From: an uncultured Candidatus Saccharibacteria bacterium
Lineage (GTDB): Bacteria; Patescibacteriota; Minisyncoccia; Phycocordibacterales; UBA918
NCBI GenBank assembly: GCA_964350645.1
Contig: CAYGJY010000002.1
Coordinates: 161,538 to 225,537, forward strand
Direction of reading: 5' to 3'
Length of the DNA stretch: 64,000 nt
Made by a program: the position numbers and the translations under genes. Below are positions 8,856 through 62,859 of the stretch, piece by piece. Every line of letters begins with the position of its first letter. Positions within the stretch are counted from its first letter, which is position 1. The notes under the pieces were generated by a model. That model saw nothing but the letters and a program-made list of their open reading frames with translations. It did no database searches and was not told the DNA's origin.

Positions 8856-8926
8856 GCGGGATTAGTTAAATGGTATAACGACTGCCTTCCAAGCAGTAGT
8901 CAGGAGTTCGATTCCCCTATCCCGCA
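8856..8926 (+). tRNA. tRNA-Gly, anticodon UCC
   Basis: Cloverleaf parts: 7-bp acceptor GCGGGAT/ATCCCGC, D-arm GTTA/TAAC, anticodon stem ACTGC/GCAGT with loop CTTCCAA, T-loop TTCGATT (one A-C mismatch in the T-stem); CCA is not encoded. Confidence 0.7.
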
Positions 8927-8937
8927 CAATGCAATTT

Positions 8938-8957
8938 GCCGCCTCCGGGCGGCTTTT
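8938..8957 (+). terminator. Terminator immediately after the tRNA
   Basis: gccgcc tccg ggcggc followed by tttt. Confidence 0.55.
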
Positions 8958-9089
8958 GTATTGTGCGGGATAGGGGTGCAGCTTTTTGGAGAAAAGCGTT
9001 GCACGAATCGAAAAGCTTTTGCGCTAGATTAAGAGCGAAGCGAAATAATATAGCCAAAAGGTGTACAGGTCCTGTAAGGACCGATTCCC

Positions 9090-37675: not shown

Positions 37676-37812
37676 TGAATTTTCTATTCATTGTTCTTGG
37701 AATTTGTTTTGTGTAAAGAAACAAATTTGGAACTAAATTCACAATAGTCGTTACTTGCCTTTGTTCATGTATCTTGCAAAATAACCTATTTGTAGTATTC
37801 TTTCGGAGCTTT

Positions 37813-38226
37813 ATGGCAACAATCAATCAATTAACAAAAAATCGTCGACGCGATCCTGAAACGAAATCAAAGCGTGGAGCCCTCCACACTGGTTTCAATA
37901 AGATCAAGAACGCGCCAAACAAATACAACTCACCATTTAAACGTGGTGTGTGTACTCGTGTCACCACGAAGACTCCGCGTAAGCCGAACTCAGCGATTCG
38001 AAAAATCGCTCGTGTGCGTCTCACAAATGGTCAAGAAATTACTGCGTACATTCCTGGTATTGGGCATAGCCTACAGGAGCACTCAGTGGTACTTGTCCGC
38101 GGTGGTCGTGTGAAAGACATTGGAGTCAACTACACAGTTGTACGCGGTAAGTACGATGCTACCGGAGTAGACGCGCGCCGACGAGGCCGCTCACGCTACG
38201 GAGCCAAACGACCAAAGGCTGAATAG
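37813..38226 (+). CDS. rpsL: 30S ribosomal protein S12
   Basis: MATINQL...KPNSAIRK...[18 protein letters not shown]. Confidence 0.95.
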
Positions 38227-52361: not shown

Positions 52362-54542
52362 ATGGCACGAGCATTTCCAATCGCAAAACTACGAAACTTC
52401 GGGATCGTAGCCCACGTTGACGCGGGTAAGACCACCACCTCTGAACGCATCCTTTTCTATACCGGGATGAGTCACAAAATCGGCGAGGTACACGACGGGG
52501 CAACCGTCACCGACTGGATGGAGCAAGAACGTGAGCGCGGTATCACCATCACCGCGGCGGCGATTTCTTGTAACTGGGCAAAAACCCTTGAGACAGATCG
52601 CAAGAACAAGGACAAGCAACACACCTTTAACATCATCGATACTCCAGGGCACATCGACTTTACCGCAGAGGTAAAGCGATCGATGCGTGTACTTGACGGT
52701 GCTGTCGTCGTATTCGACGGCGCGGCTGGTGTAGAGCCACAAACCGAAACCAACTGGGGCTACGCTGATGAAGCTGGTGTACCACGAATTTGTTTTGTAA
52801 ACAAAATGGACAAGCTGGGTGCTGATTACAACGCTTCAGTAAAGTCTATCGAAGAGCGACTCTCTAAAAAAGCTGTCCGGATTCAACTCCCGATCGGGGC
52901 AGAAGACGCACTCTCTGGTGTGGTTGATTTGATCACGATGAAGGCCTATCGGTTTGCTGGTGAGATGGGTATGGAGGTGACTGAAGAAGAGATTCCTGAG
53001 AATATGGTTGAAGACGCTAAGAAGTGGCGCGCTGAAATGATCGAACGCGTTGTTGAACACGACGACACGCTGATGGAAGCGTTTCTTGAAGGGACCGAGC
53101 CAACGCTTGAAGACCTCAAGAAGACCTTGCGAAAGGCGGTATTGGCTAACGAAATTTTTCCAGTCATGACTGGTTCAGCACTGAAGAACATCGGTGTGCA
53201 GCTCGTGCTTGACGCGGTAGTTGATTATCTGCCAGCACCAACTGACCTCCCACCAACGCACGGTCATGATCCAGATGATGAAGAAACTATTATCGAACGA
53301 CTGCCAACAGACGAAGACCCATTCAGCGCTCTTGTATTTAAACTACAGGACGACAAGTTCGTTGGGCAGCTGGCTTTCTTCCGGGTGTATTCAGGTACGG
53401 TGAAGTCTGGTTCATACATTTTGAACTCTTCAACGGGAAACAAGGAACGAATCGGACGAATTGTTCGTCTGATGGCTGACAAGCGAGAAGAAGTAGACGA
53501 AGTATATGCGGGCGAGATTGCGGCCGCTGTAGGGATCAAGGAAGTAAAGACATCGCACACTATTTGTGACGAAGCGAAGCCAATTGTACTCGAGCAAATT
53601 ACGTTCCCAGCCCCAGTCGTTGCTGTGCGTGTTGAGCCAAAGACTAAAAATGACCAAGAAAAAATGGGTGTAGCCTTAAAGCGCCTGTCAGATGAGGATC
53701 CGACGTTTGTCGTATCAACTGACGAAGAAACGCTCGAAACCATCATTGCTGGTATGGGTGAGTTGCACCTCGACATCATTGTTGATCGTATGAAACGAGA
53801 GTTTGGAGTAGAGGCCAACATTGGTCAACCACAAGTAGCGTACCGAGAAACAATCCAACGTGAAGCTGAAGCCGAGCATAAATACATTAAGCAGTCTGGA
53901 GGACGCGGACAGTACGGACACGTCAAGATTCGCATCAAGCCACTGGTGCCGCTCGCGAAAGATGAAAACGGGGAAGATGAGAAGGTTGCTAAGAACGTTA
54001 CTCGCGATGATCACTTTGAATTCATCAACAGCATTAAGGGAGGAGTCATTCCACAGGAATACATTCCAGCTGTCATGAAGGGAGCTAAAGAAGCGATGGG
54101 TCGCGGATTTGTCGCTGGCTATAAAATGGAAGATGTATCAGTTGAACTCTTTGATGGTTCATTCCACGATGTTGACTCGAGTGAAATCGCCTTTAAGTTG
54201 GCTGGTATTAACGCCTTTAAGGATGCAGCTGCAAAGGCGAGTCCGGTTATCCTTGAGCCAATCATGAAGGTTGAAGTACGAACACCAGATGAATACATGG
54301 GAGACATTCAAGGGAATATTTCATCGAAGCGCGGTCAGATTGAAGGCTCAGAAGAAATGGGAGGCAAGACAATCGTCAACGCCAAGGTGCCACTATCAGA
54401 AATGTTTGGTTACACCAACTCACTGCGTTCAATGACTCAAGGTCGTGCGAGTATGACGATGGAGTTTGATCACTATGAAGTGGTCCCACCAAACGTGGCT
54501 GAAGAGATTAAGAAGGCGAGAGGGGTGAAAGCAGAGGCATAA
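52362..54542 (+). CDS. fusA: Elongation factor G
   Basis: [15 protein letters not shown]...; full-length EF-G. Confidence 0.95.
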
Positions 54543-56037: not shown

Positions 56038-56394
56038 ATGGCTACAAACACATCATCTAAATCAAAGAAAGACGCAGCGGCTGGCGAAATCCAGAAGCTT
56101 CGTATTCGTGTTCGCGCTTATGAGCACAAGATTCTTGACGCTTCAGTCAAGCAGATTACTGACACAGCCGCTCGCTTTGATGCGACTGTTGTTGGACCAA
56201 TTCCGCTACCAACTGAAATCAAGAAGTACACAGTAAACCGTTCAACGTTCGTCCATAAGGATGCGCGAGAACAATTCGAGATGCGCATGCACAAACGTGT
56301 CATCGACATCATGAATCCGAGCGGCAAAGTCATTGAGGCTTTGACCAACCTGTCACTGCCCTCTGGCGTGAACATTGATGTAAAGATGATCTAA
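56038..56394 (+). CDS. rpsJ: 30S ribosomal protein S10
   Basis: KLRIRVRAYEHKILD...GPIPLPT; conserved tuf-rpsJ order. Confidence 0.9.
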   Translation: MATNTSSKSKKDAAAGEIQKLRIRVRAYEHKILDASVKQITDTAARFDATVVGPIPLPTEIKKYTVNRSTFVHKDAREQFEMRMHKRVIDIMNPSGKVIEALTNLSLPSGVNIDVKMI

Positions 56395-56405
56395 GTGTTG
56401 CTATA

Positions 56406-56442
56406 ACAAAAGGCCGGCCCCGTAGGGGCCGGCCTTTTGTGT
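56406..56442. terminator. 37-nt palindromic terminator, identical in sequence to the one at 62166-62202
   Basis: acaaaaggccggcccc gta ggggccggccttttgtgt. Confidence 0.7.
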
Positions 56443-56460
56443 GGTTACTTCACCAGCAAT

Positions 56461-56853
56461 TTACCCAGCGATAAAGACATCTGAGTAGAGAGTAGTGCCA
56501 TCGAATTCGCAGGTAACCAACTTCCACATGTTGTTGGTATTGTATGCAATTGATTCACAAAGTGTACGAGCCTCGGCTTCTGATGCAACTTCGTTTTGAA
56601 GAGTAGTGCCGCCTTCAATCGTGATAGTTACAGTTTTGAGAGCAATCATTTCTTCGCTAGTTTCAAACTGAATACCAGCTACTTCACCAGCTGGACTCAT
56701 ACTTTGTTTGGCAGCATCAAGATTGAGCTGTAAAACTGCTAGGTCAGCTTTGGCTGCGTGTAACTCAGCGAGCAAGTGCTCAACAGTAGACGCCTGGGCT
56801 AACGGAGCTACTAAAAAAGTAGCTAGGGCAAAGATTGAGAAGATAAATTTCAT
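56461..56853 (-). CDS. Small secreted protein
   Basis: Signal peptide MKFIFSIFALATFLVAPLAQA. Confidence 0.45.
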   Translation of the reverse strand: MKFIFSIFALATFLVAPLAQASTVEHLLAELHAAKADLAVLQLNLDAAKQSMSPAGEVAGIQFETSEEMIALKTVTITIEGGTTLQNEVASEAEARTLCESIAYNTNNMWKLVTCEFDGTTLYSDVFIAG

Positions 56854-57332
56854 ACTTTATGTATTAAGATTGAATAGATATTGAAACTAAACTGTAATAA
56901 GTATACTGATTAATTAACTTTTGTCAAGTATTAGCGACTCAAAAAGTAAAGAAAAAACTCGTCACCTGAGGGCTACGAGTTTTTTCTTTACCTCCAACGT
57001 ACAGGTGCCTGTGGACACAAGTGCGTTAGTTTATGTGTGATGGGAAATGCAGTAGCACATTCCCGTGCACTACTGCCTAGTCTAAACAGCGGCTGGCTGC
57101 CTAAACAGATGTGGATCGTGTAGAGCACATCCTACTTACTATGACGCACCAGGTAGCAAAATCTTTCAGAAGTAGTGGCAGCTAGCGCACCCTAGTCAAA
57201 ACTGACTACCTCACTCCCGCACTGCCCCAGCCAAGCCGACCCATTACGAGATCGCTCGCCCGCTAGCTTTGGACAGAGGGGTTTCAAAACTTCTCGTTAT
57301 TATAGTAAGGCAGTCTCAACAACCTAATATTT

Positions 57333-57350
57333 ACTATCATATATGATAGT
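57333..57350. promoter_or_regulatory. Operator-like perfect palindrome ACTATCATATATGATAGT (copy 1), 15 nt after the yerC-like stop
   Basis: 18-bp perfect dyad. Confidence 0.5.
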
Positions 57351-57364
57351 GAGATTACATTGGA

Positions 57365-57781
57365 TTATTTTGATCCGGGAAAGAGTAAGAAGTGCAATGG
57401 ATATTTTTTCTTTAACGCTGCTAGTCCAAATGGATTAGCTTTGATATCTCGCTGGTTTTGTCTCTTTTGTAATTCAGACTCAAGTCCTTTGATGGCGTCC
57501 CGATATCCTGGCATTTGTTTCCGTAGCCATTTCTCGACCTTAACAATTGTATTGGGTCCAACTTCTAACTGTTCACCAATGTCTGCATGAGTATGACCAG
57601 AGAGCAATAGCCTCGCAATCCATATGCGCCTTCCCAGCATGATTCGCTCACTTGGAGTTAAGAGTTCTTTTAAAAATGCTTTAGTAGCATCTCTGCCTTT
57701 CACTGCTCCGGCTGCAGTATAAAGCATATCAAGAGTCTCCATTTGTTGCTGGTTAGTCAGCTGATCTAATTTTTTCTTCAT
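57365..57781 (-). CDS. TrpR-related YerC/YecD-family DNA-binding protein
   Basis: LTPSERIMLGRRIWIARLLLSGHTHADIGEQLEVGPNTIVKV, a Trp_repressor-like HTH. Confidence 0.7.
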   Translation of the reverse strand: MKKKLDQLTNQQQMETLDMLYTAAGAVKGRDATKAFLKELLTPSERIMLGRRIWIARLLLSGHTHADIGEQLEVGPNTIVKVEKWLRKQMPGYRDAIKGLESELQKRQNQRDIKANPFGLAALKKKYPLHFLLFPGSK

Positions 57782-57789
57782 ATATAAAT

Positions 57790-57807
57790 ACTATCATATA
57801 TAATAGT
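57790..57807. promoter_or_regulatory. Operator copy 2 (ACTATCATATATAATAGT, one mismatch), 9 bp upstream of the regulator start codon
   Basis: 17 of 18 identity to copy 1; overlaps the likely promoter. Confidence 0.5.
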
Positions 57808-57856
57808 AAGTTCGTAAGTTACTTTGTGCCATGAAGTGAAAAAATAAAGATTTTTC

Positions 57857-57874
57857 ACTATCATATATGATAGT
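57857..57874. promoter_or_regulatory. Operator copy 3 (perfect ACTATCATATATGATAGT)
   Basis: Perfect dyad about 76 bp upstream of the regulator start. Confidence 0.5.
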
Positions 57875-57906
57875 GAAATAGAGGATGTTGGAATGTTCAA
57901 ATTTAC

Positions 57907-57955
57907 AAATGAAAACACCCCACCGCAATGAGTTATCCCTCCTTTCTTCCGCGCT
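57907..57955. repeat. 49-bp direct repeat, copy A
   Basis: aaatgaaaacaccccaccgcaatgagttatccctcctttcttccgcgct. Confidence 0.6.
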
Positions 57956-57967
57956 CACGATGTACAC

Positions 57968-58978
57968 CTAATCTTGATGAGTAAGTCTTTCAGCTAACGT
58001 AGGTATTTTACTGAAATCAAATTCAGGATTATGTGTCTGTATATAGTCAATAGTGGCGTCAAGTGTTTCTATCATTATTTCTTCGGCTAATGGCTCCCGT
58101 TCTGCTTCCGGTGCTGCATACAGACCCTTAATTTTTTCATTGATGGCTGGTAGGTGTACGCTATTCAGTTCTACTGCACCAGAATCTGTTAATACATCGT
58201 AGTATGTTTGCAGCCTTTCGCTTGCCGACAGATCTTTGTGTGAGTGATATAGACTGCCAAGGAGTAGAAAAGGCGCTAGCTGATAGTAAGTGTTAAGTCC
58301 ATTGCTAATAAAGGCTGCTCGGAAATTCTGCTGCGTCTCTAGATCGGGACTGAATAAGTGCAGTCCGTTACTGGCTGTGAACACTTCTGATGGGATATCT
58401 TTTTTTGCAACAGCGCACAGTAATAACAGATTCGCAACCGCTGAGGTGGTGTGTTCTTGGTCGCCACAGACACCGTGCATAGCTTCGTGGCAAATTAATT
58501 GGAGAAACTCGATCGCTGGGATATCGCCTCGCATCAAAAGTAGGTTCGCCCCCTCAGCGTCAGCTGACTCGTGCATGAATCTACCTAGGAGTGATTTTGG
58601 ATTATCTAATGGCCCAAAGGTCTGCACTGAAGTTTCTTTATCAAACACTACCATAGCAGTAGTTGTGGACATGCCGTCAAATGCTTCTGGAATAGCTTCC
58701 TGGAGTCCATTTTTTCCAGAAACTTGTGAAAAGGCCCATTGTAAAAAATTGACAAATTCTCGCTGCTCTCTTTCTGTCAGGTCTGCCACTATTGTTTCGG
58801 TGTCTTCGAGAAGTGTAAGTAGTTCAGTGGCATCCCAGTCGCCCTCAATTGTTTCAAATTGATGTGCTATGTAGCCAGCTGACTCCTGTGCTTTCAATAT
58901 TTCAGGCAAAGCTGCAGTCCCACCAAGTGCAACGGCACTAGTGATAAATTCCCTTCTGTTTAGTAGTGGTTTTTCCAT
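57968..58978 (-). CDS. Tat-signal protein with an HExxH motif (putative secreted zinc-dependent hydrolase)
   Basis: N-terminus MEKPLLNRREFITSAVALGGTAALP (RRxFI twin-arginine-like); LICHEAMHGVCGDQEH. Confidence 0.5.
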   Translation of the reverse strand: MEKPLLNRREFITSAVALGGTAALPEILKAQESAGYIAHQFETIEGDWDATELLTLLEDTETIVADLTEREQREFVNFLQWAFSQVSGKNGLQEAIPEAFDGMSTTTAMVVFDKETSVQTFGPLDNPKSLLGRFMHESADAEGANLLLMRGDIPAIEFLQLICHEAMHGVCGDQEHTTSAVANLLLLCAVAKKDIPSEVFTASNGLHLFSPDLETQQNFRAAFISNGLNTYYQLAPFLLLGSLYHSHKDLSASERLQTYYDVLTDSGAVELNSVHLPAINEKIKGLYAAPEAEREPLAEEIMIETLDATIDYIQTHNPEFDFSKIPTLAERLTHQD

Positions 58979-59008
58979 ATAACATCAATAATATCGTATC
59001 GATCATAA

Positions 59009-59057
59009 AAATGAAAACACCCCACCGCAATGAGTTATTCCTCCTTTCTTCCGCGCT
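59009..59057. repeat. 49-bp direct repeat, copy B (48 of 49 identical); here it is extended into a complete hairpin
   Basis: aaatgaaaacaccccaccgcaatgagttattcctcctttcttccgcgct, followed by gtgcggtgggggtgttttc. Confidence 0.6.
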
Positions 59058-59074
59058 GTGCGGTGGGGGTGTTT

Positions 59075-59347
59075 TCATTTGGTGGGGATATTTGTGTTCC
59101 TGCTGAGTATCAGCCAGGCGGCGTTACTGCCGCCAATTGGGCATTCTAGTACTCCGATACATCCCAGTTCTTCAGCTGAGACAAGCATTTCAGCTTGCGT
59201 GCCACGTTTAAGTTTTTGATGTTCTCCGTTTTTAAGCAGTGCAAAGAATGCGTTGACGAAGTTGAAAGTTTCTTTATTCAATTCCGTGTGCAGCCTGCAC
59301 CCAAGTTCTGCAAGGATGAGCATGACTGTATTGTGCGGTATCTCCAT
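59075..59347 (-). CDS. Hypothetical small protein (90 aa)
   Basis: ORF in the same orientation as the three other insert genes. Confidence 0.3.
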   Translation of the reverse strand: MEIPHNTVMLILAELGCRLHTELNKETFNFVNAFFALLKNGEHQKLKRGTQAEMLVSAEELGCIGVLECPIGGSNAAWLILSRNTNIPTK

Positions 59348-59475
59348 CGGAGCCTCCTATTTTGCATGTGAACCATAAACCCTTGCAAAGCGCAACAAAA
59401 TCCGTATACTACCGGGAGCTTACTAAAGACCTATGTTCGGTGATGGCTCGCTTGCGAGCTTGAGAACCAATGGGC

Positions 59476-59533
59476 AGAAATCGCGCCGTTTTGCGTGCGA
59501 GCATTCTGCTCGCGTCAAAACGGCGCGATTTCT
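59476..59533. promoter_or_regulatory. Very stable nested hairpin upstream of rplC (18-bp outer stem plus 7-bp inner stem) with no T-tract; candidate leader or regulatory RNA structure
   Basis: agaaatcgcgccgttttg cgtgcgagcattctgctcgcgt caaaacggcgcgatttct. Confidence 0.4.
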
Positions 59534-59575
59534 CATTTGAGGTCTAATAAGCAAATTATTAGATAAGGTTACAGA

Positions 59576-62165: not shown

Positions 62166-62202
62166 ACAAAAGGCCGGCCCCGTAGGGGCCGGCCTTTTGT
62201 GT
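62166..62202. terminator. 37-nt palindromic terminator identical to 56406-56442
   Basis: acaaaaggccggcccc gta ggggccggccttttgtgt. Confidence 0.7.
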
Positions 62203-62612: not shown

Positions 62613-62859
62613 GTTCCCAACCTCAGTGTTCTAAAAGCCTGGCAGCCGATAGAACACAAACCAAATAAGAAATCCCAGGTAGTTGGCCGTTAACCAGCCC
62701 TGGATCAAAGATTTCGGACAGAAAGCACAATAGTGGTGCTTTTTATTAGTTAATGGAGTTCAGCGAAACGTTAGAGTGCGTGTTCCAGGAATTCGCCCTA
62801 GGAATGGGGCGAATTCGGAACTAAATTCTGAATAGTCGTTACACTCCTTTCATCATTTA

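Follow-up and report, generated by a model that had tools for sequence, protein, structure and literature searches.

The stretch of DNA analysed here, called the window, is 64 kb of the forward strand of contig CAYGJY010000002.1 (positions 161,538 to 225,537; assembly GCA_964350645.1), assigned to an uncultured Candidatus Saccharibacteria bacterium. All window-wide searches cover this one 64-kb window of the ~450-kb source contig. rpsJ and rplC are normally adjacent in one ribosomal-protein operon. In the window, tuf and rpsJ (56038-56394, plus strand) are separated from rplC-rplD-rplW-rplB (plus strand, from 59576) by a gap of 3.2 kb (56395-59575) that holds four genes, all on the minus strand. 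One of them, an open reading frame (ORF) of 336 amino acids (aa), is enclosed by two nearly identical copies of a 49-nucleotide (nt) sequence. Copy B, upstream of this ORF, forms part of a complete hairpin at the 3' end of a 90-aa ORF; copy A, downstream of it, is followed by a gene for a YerC/TrpR-family regulator. The repeat pair, the hairpin, and the gene between the copies are the subject of this report.

The repeat search of the window reported a direct repeat pair at 57904-57955 and 59006-59057, 52 nt long, with 96% identity and a spacing of 1102 nt. Its 49-nt core differs between the copies at a single position (C at 57937 in copy A, T at 59039 in copy B), and an exact core of 30 nt is common to both. 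A 44-nt pattern allowing up to three mismatches matched copies A and B only, and 0 of 100 dinucleotide-preserving shuffles were matched. Copy A aligned to copy B by blastn-short with E = 4e-21. A first reading of the locus, made from the letters alone and called the sequence-only reading here, had described two 49-base-pair (bp) copies with one mismatch, 1102 bp apart; the repeat search, the pattern scan, and blastn-short all bear this out. No further copy of the 49-mer or of the hairpin, whole or partial, was found in the 64 kb by low-stringency blastn with the hairpin and the repeat. In a pairwise alignment, identity between the copies switched on and off sharply at both ends, and the flanks had no residual similarity. 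This abrupt end of homology between dissimilar flanks points to discrete junctions and not to decay. One end of the repeat lies 1 nt inside the loop, beside the arm/loop junction, and the other lies exactly at the stem base, so that both are within 1 nt of a hairpin landmark.

On the minus strand, the complete hairpin (hairpin B) consists of a 22-nt arm (59080-59059), a 29-nt loop (59058-59030), and a 21-nt arm (59029-59009; AAATGAAAACACCCCACCGCA). As RNA, it folds with -34.2 kcal/mol on the minus strand (z = -4.3) and -40 kcal/mol on the plus strand (z = -5.4); as single-stranded DNA, it folds on either strand with z about -5. Copy A is no more stably folded than its shuffles (z = +1.2 and +1.4). 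Arm mapping and folding therefore agree with the earlier description, in which copy B runs on into a complete hairpin and copy A lacks one arm. The absence of the arm stands, and its naming can be refined. All four genes of the rpsJ-rplC gap are encoded by the minus strand; on this coding strand, the repeat therefore comprises the loop and the 3' arm, and it is the 5' arm that copy A lacks.

Compared with an intrinsic terminator, hairpin B overlaps a stop codon, folds at -34 kcal/mol, and has a UUUUUAU tail, but its loop is 29 nt long. The 25 longest close-spaced inverted repeats of the window mostly have 3-nt loops, G+C-rich stems, and A/T runs. Hairpin B resembles a terminator for the 90-aa ORF, yet with such a loop it is atypical for this genome. 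It was not among the minus-strand hits of a terminator consensus scan. The hairpin had only chance-level matches in Rfam (e.g., microRNA models), and a search of the window for transfer RNA (tRNA) genes and RNA families (ARAGORN, Rfam) returned only a tRNA-Gly gene at 8856-8927. When the flank of copy A was swapped in for the downstream flank of copy B, the stem gained one C-G pair and the energy was -36.9 instead of -33.9 kcal/mol. This lengthening of the stem is a weak hint that the flank of copy A (GTAAATTTG...) is the native downstream flank of the hairpin. Copy A ends 16 nt short of the outer edge of the yerC operator region.

The DNA between the copies is packed tightly around a single ORF. 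The short distances claimed by the sequence-only reading hold as well, with 12 nt from the stop codon to copy A and 30 nt from copy B to the ATG. Gain or loss would involve a unit of 1102 bp, made up of the unique segment of 1053 bp and one repeat copy. The 336-aa ORF has a clear coding signature, with G+C contents at the first, second, and third codon positions (GC1, GC2, and GC3) of 0.58, 0.38, and 0.36. Its codon usage ranks 11th lowest of 56 ORFs, and both codon usage and G+C content are within the spread of the window. Its protein matched only itself among 5.8 billion clustered proteins (word-indexed search) and 1.84 billion representatives (full HMMER pass). It had no significant match in Pfam, PHROGs, or NCBIfam and none among PDB sequences, and tblastn against phage and plasmid records was negative too. 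A single-sequence AlphaFold model had a mean predicted local distance difference test (pLDDT) score of 48.7, too poor for use. The 90-aa protein likewise matched only itself among the 5.8 billion clustered proteins. A larger tandem duplication was considered and rejected; homology between the 90-aa and the 336-aa proteins was sought and none was found. The features of the locus are listed in Table 1.

Table 1. Features of the rpsJ-rplC gap, in the coordinates of the window (ORF, open reading frame; aa, amino acids; nt, nucleotides)
Feature	Position	Strand	Remarks
130-aa ORF	56461-56853	-	Hydrophobic, signal-peptide-like N-terminus
YerC/TrpR-family regulator	57365-57781	-	Downstream of copy A; context, outside the repeat unit
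Repeat copy A	57907-57955	-	Loop and 3' arm, partner arm absent; begins 12 nt past the stop of the 336-aa ORF; not folding
Unique DNA between the copies	57956-59008	-	1053 bp (30 nt, ORF, 12 nt)
336-aa ORF	57968-58978	-	Between the repeats; twin-arginine-like N-terminus (NRREFI); HEAMH (HExxH) motif
Repeat copy B	59009-59057	-	28 of the 29 loop nt and the entire 3' arm of the intact hairpin; carries AGAAAGGAGG (plus strand CCTCCTTTCT, 59040-59049)
Complete hairpin B	59009-59080	-	21-bp stem with one bulged C, 29-nt loop, then UUUUUAU on the minus strand
Unduplicated arm	59059-59080	-	22 nt; 5' arm on the coding strand; includes the TGA stop of the 90-aa ORF (59075-59077)
90-aa ORF	59075-59347	-	AGGAGG 5 nt before the ATG; stop codon inside the hairpin

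The window belongs to a Patescibacteria-type genome, and its closest L3 relative is a Paceibacteria genome with 64% identity. In this relative (L004, 1243-4798), rpsJ and rplC are separated by ~3.5 kb that holds entirely different genes on the opposite strand. Because the content of the gap differs in the closest relative, the gap is a place of gene turnover, and from this comparison with one distant relative it appears to be a hotspot. Homologues of YerC with 60-86% identity are common in the radiation; they lie in other neighbourhoods and give no view of the ancestral site. In one relative checked (L084), the 5S and 23S ribosomal RNA (rRNA) genes lie downstream of yerC. Similarity of the yerC relatives to the window is confined to the gene, ~30 nt of its upstream sequence, and the operator palindrome; they are without the 49-mer. 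Three ACTATCATATATGATAGT palindromes are located around yerC in the window (57330-57355, 57787-57812, and 57854-57879), and similar ones occur near yerC in relatives; these palindromes are probably YerC operators. The window also encodes DNA-uptake proteins of the ComEC type and the PilB/PilC type.

We read the two 49-nt copies as the scar of one event in which a segment of 1.05 kb with a single gene entered the hairpin at the end of the 90-aa gene, and we put the chance that this is correct at about one half. One complete hairpin, a partnerless copy, sharp junctions, and a packed single ORF are explained most simply by one insertion that duplicated part of the hairpin. Further support comes from the uniqueness of the repeat in the window, the lack of relatives of both ORFs in the collections searched, the turnover in the gap, the unusual loop of the hairpin, and the DNA-uptake genes. 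Before the event, the minus strand would have carried the 90-aa gene, the 5' arm, the loop, the 3' arm, GTAAATTTG..., and the yerC operators in this order. After the event, the first copy of the loop and 3' arm would pair with the original 5' arm, so that the 90-aa gene would keep a complete hairpin, and the second copy would be stranded without a partner behind the new gene. By the likeliest route, the hairpin in the chromosome would have undergone a single reciprocal crossover with a circle that carried the gene and a 49-bp match to the loop and 3' arm. This would be an integration of the att type or the Campbell type, mediated by a recombinase encoded elsewhere or by host homologous recombination. 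Such a crossover would give exactly the layout observed and would also permit the precise loss of the 1102-bp unit. As for the enzymology, the event may have depended on RecA or on a recombinase supplied in trans, or it may have proceeded through a staggered break. We infer the occurrence of the insertion, its direction, and the enzyme from one locus.

The sequence-only reading had expected this anatomy from a gene cassette inserted into a pre-existing hairpin and had pointed to an empty site, with a single repeat copy and no gene, as the check. The anatomy was as predicted; the empty site was sought in relatives and metagenomes and was not found. An exact 21-mer across the arm/loop junction was absent from species-representative genomes, Joint Genome Institute (JGI) metagenomes, and viral contigs, and a 23-mer from the loop had no match in viral contigs. 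A pattern of the two arms with a free loop gave two metagenome matches; these were rejected, as only the searched bases were common and their number was, by estimate, about that of chance. The same reading had called for a genome-wide search with the 49-mer. The part of it covered here, the 64-kb window, holds only the two copies, both at gene ends, and none was found in the public collections searched. On the minus strand, the reconstructed empty site reads CCACCAAATGAAAACACCCCCACCGCAC AGCGCGGAAGAAAGGAGGRATAACTCATTGCGGTGGGGTGTTTTCATTT GTAAATTTGAACATTCC, and the predicted circle junction reads ...GGTGTACATCGTG, the 49-mer, and TTATGATCGATACG... With these two junctions spelled out exactly, both the empty site and a possible excised circle can be tested for.

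Several results weigh against the insertion. No empty site was found in the representative genomes, metagenomes, viral contigs, or relatives searched, and the contigs of three read sets all have the filled site. The public collections searched gave no second example of the 49-mer or the hairpin. No integrase, transposase, resolvase, or Cas family was found by Pfam among 44 ORFs of the window, and the insert itself encodes none. Codon usage and G+C content of the 336-aa gene are ordinary, and the gene therefore bears no sign of a recent import from a distant donor. The target hairpin is neither a tRNA nor a known RNA, and it is unexplained why a donor should match merely the loop and one arm. 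The two copies begin 17 nt (copy B) and 12 nt (copy A) past a stop codon, and this also fits a 3' module belonging to each gene.

Among known systems, the layout is formally that of genomic islands in genes for tRNA or transfer-messenger RNA (tmRNA). According to the Islander account, a regenerated target and a displaced fragment of it mark the ends of such an insert (PMC4383910). The present locus has the same bounding layout: direct repeats of tens of bp, a repeat that is the 3' part of a structured element from the loop to the 3' end, and one copy that completes the element with the other stranded. A length of 49 bp is within the range of anticodon-loop-type att sites. The differences are that the target here is a terminator-like hairpin, that the insert is 1.05 kb with one ORF and no integrase, and that no empty site or second occurrence was found in the collections searched. 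On balance, the locus is best read as a scar of gene insertion. Such scars are known in general, but the place and the host are unusual here, and the inserted gene is without known relatives.

Integron cassettes share with the unit a compact, one-ORF, orphan character, little spacer, no clear promoter of its own, and a hairpin-forming sequence resembling a recombination site. They differ in that no intI was present among the 44 ORFs scanned. The core sites of attC have the consensus RYYYAAC / GTTRRRY, and the hairpin ends here (AAATGAAAAC... and ...GTTTTCATTT) do not fit it. Integron arrays also keep a complete attC for each cassette, whereas copy A is without a whole arm. On these three grounds, an integron cassette was rejected.

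Variable cassettes that lie between two conserved genes and are swapped through transformation and flanking homology are defined by strain comparison, and flanking repeats are not needed for them. In Neisseria, these have been termed 'minimal mobile elements' (PMC3082526, PMC1538595). The rpsJ-rplC gap is similar in that two conserved genes enclose different genes in the closest relative, and DNA-uptake genes are present. It differs in that the comparison here is with one distant relative, and the distinctive feature is the duplication of half a hairpin.

Target-site duplication by transposons, CRISPR spacer integration, and casposon integration likewise leave a target sequence directly duplicated on both sides of an insert. 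Transposon duplications are usually 2-15 bp and are accompanied by terminal inverted repeats and a transposase. A transposon insertion was rejected, given a duplication of 49 bp, insert ends (TTATGATCG... and ...ACATCGTG) without inverted repetition, and the lack of any match to a transposase family among the ORFs scanned. No CRISPR array was seen in the window, and no Cas family was matched among the 44 ORFs scanned. As to dispersal in the manner of miniature inverted-repeat transposable elements (MITE) or repetitive extragenic palindromic (REP) sequences, one complete and one partial copy are present in the 64 kb, and none was found in the public collections scanned.

A different origin would start from two complete 72-nt hairpin modules, one for each orphan gene, with copy A later losing its 5' arm through a deletion that ended in the loop. 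The two hairpins could have arrived jointly from a donor that reused its terminator, or an integration could have duplicated the whole hairpin. The positions of the copies, 17 nt and 12 nt past the stop of the preceding ORF, are alike as this origin would have it, and the genome does reuse identical terminators elsewhere (37 nt with 100% identity at 56406-56442 and 62166-62202). In type, the hairpin departs from the usual terminators of the genome, both adjacent ORFs are orphans, and long palindromes are prone to breaks of the deletion type. Against it, two events are needed rather than one, and no trace of a 5' arm is left upstream of copy A, where the aligned flanks have no identical run. 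The 3' end of the 336-aa ORF, 12 nt short of the repeat, is also clean and shows no sign of fusion or truncation. We regard the two-hairpin origin as unlikely.

The repeat may instead be a functional module kept twice, as a ribosome-binding stabiliser of messenger RNA (mRNA), the start of a small ORF, or part of a promoter. In both copies, AGAAAGGAGG is a 10-nt match to the complement of the usual 3' tail of 16S rRNA and is followed 9 nt later by a TTG. A sequence resembling a Shine-Dalgarno (SD) site that does not initiate translation can stabilise mRNA through binding of the 30S subunit, as described for the STAB-SD of Bacillus thuringiensis cry3A (PMC4113751). The 49-mer is similar to STAB-SD in having an extended SD-like sequence tens to >100 nt before a start, too far to initiate. 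It differs in that the motif lies in a hairpin loop in one copy; a STAB-SD function would be speculative here and would not explain the half-hairpin layout. The small ORFs that begin at the TTG have 30 aa at copy B and 44 aa at copy A, but they are alike for the first seven codons only and then diverge. AGGAGG-type motifs in the window are often intragenic and are absent at many real starts, so that they mark gene starts unreliably and the motif carries little weight by itself.

A shared promoter carried in the repeat, which the sequence-only reading had offered as its alternative, is not supported. Copy B does contain a weak promoter-like TTTTCA, followed 18 nt downstream by TATTAT, ~10 nt before the ATG of the 336-aa ORF. 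The match of this pair, a -10-like hexamer with the -35-like TTTTCA of the repeat, is weak (9 of 12), and copy A lacks a -10 at the corresponding distance. The next start codons are 30 nt from copy B and 125 nt from copy A. The relatives of yerC retain its promoter-proximal sequence and operator palindromes without the 49-mer. A function of any of these kinds would explain why the repeat was retained, not how one complete and one half hairpin arose. We consider a functional module kept twice decidedly improbable.

The insertion could be extended to an undescribed cassette system of Patescibacteria, in which one-gene circles carrying ~49 bp of loop and arm would enter terminator-like hairpins. 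The recombinase would be encoded elsewhere, or a nuclease would recognise the hairpin shape, and the upstream hairpin would be regenerated with each entry. The support for such a system is this single case, and we think it a long shot. If real, the system would have integron-like cargo, that is, compact orphan genes, with a different site architecture. It would help to explain the build-up of orphan genes in the ribosomal-protein operons of reduced genomes.

An artefact or chimeric join at a short repeat is hardly credible: although contigs of the read set ERR3534981 break exactly at the 30-nt core of the repeat, such breaks are expected where a de Bruijn graph with k = 31 (a value inferred from the 30-mer) meets a 30-nt repeat, and contigs from ERR3534985 and ERR3534994 run across both copies and across copy A, respectively. 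In total, three independent read sets (ERR3534981, ERR3534985, and ERR3534994) gave contigs 100% identical to the window across the junctions. A single ERR3534985 contig covers both copies, and an ERR3534994 contig covers copy A with the flank on either side. Every contig that includes the mismatch position retains the C/T difference. In ERR3534981, the 336-aa gene is a 1132-nt piece with the same 30-mer at both ends. With k = 31 as their cause, the breaks are no evidence for or against an empty allele.

If the insertion is true, the locus records a cleanly delimited gain of a gene without relatives by a reduced genome of the candidate phyla radiation. The gene would have entered the rpsJ-rplC gap and left the 3' hairpin of its neighbour intact. 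With one locus and no comparators, the value of the case is chiefly in annotation and hypothesis generation.

Other features of the window were noted. A gene-free stretch of ~360 nt lies downstream of yerC on the minus strand (56940-57300), with a TATAAT-like box near 57296 and a strong terminator at 56946-56991. Its RNA folds with -141 kcal/mol (z = -5.7) and has no match in Rfam; it is a candidate for an undescribed structured RNA. At the other end of the gap, a perfect hairpin of 18-19 bp with a 22-nt loop is located ~40 nt upstream of rplC, at 59476-59533 in the window and 4697-4756 in L004. Its position and much of its sequence are kept in both genomes, and it may be a regulatory leader of the operon, whose first gene is now rplC.

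The ribosomal operons of this genome are interrupted repeatedly. The two identical 37-nt terminator hairpins (ACAAAAGGCCGGCCCCGTAGGGGCCGGCCTTTTGTGT) form a direct repeat with a spacing of 5760 nt. One comes immediately after rpsJ and the other immediately after rplB, and at both points the S10 operon is interrupted by non-ribosomal genes on the minus strand. The genes for S12 and elongation factor G (EF-G) are normally neighbours in one operon. In the window, the S12 gene (37774-38226) and the EF-G gene (52362-54542) are ~14 kb apart, with unrelated genes between them that include those for an ABC ATPase, an aldo-keto reductase, a pyridine-nucleotide disulphide oxidoreductase fusion, and several proteins without a family.

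Modules of 48 nt occur at 37724-37771, 62710-62757, and 62812-62859, and immediately precede the genes for S12 (37774) and S19 (62860). The modules upstream of these two genes have 81% identity to each other and contain GGAAC, 15 nt, and CGTTA, resembling a promoter of the extracytoplasmic function (ECF) sigma type. Judged by this sequence and placement, the 48-nt module looks like a true shared promoter or leader, unlike the 49-mer. Near the tRNA-Gly gene, a 21-nt inverted repeat (8914-8934 and 8956-8976) is 95% complementary. The final 14 nt of the gene fall within the left arm of this repeat, and a reversed copy of the 3' end of tRNA-Gly thus sits 29 nt downstream of the gene.

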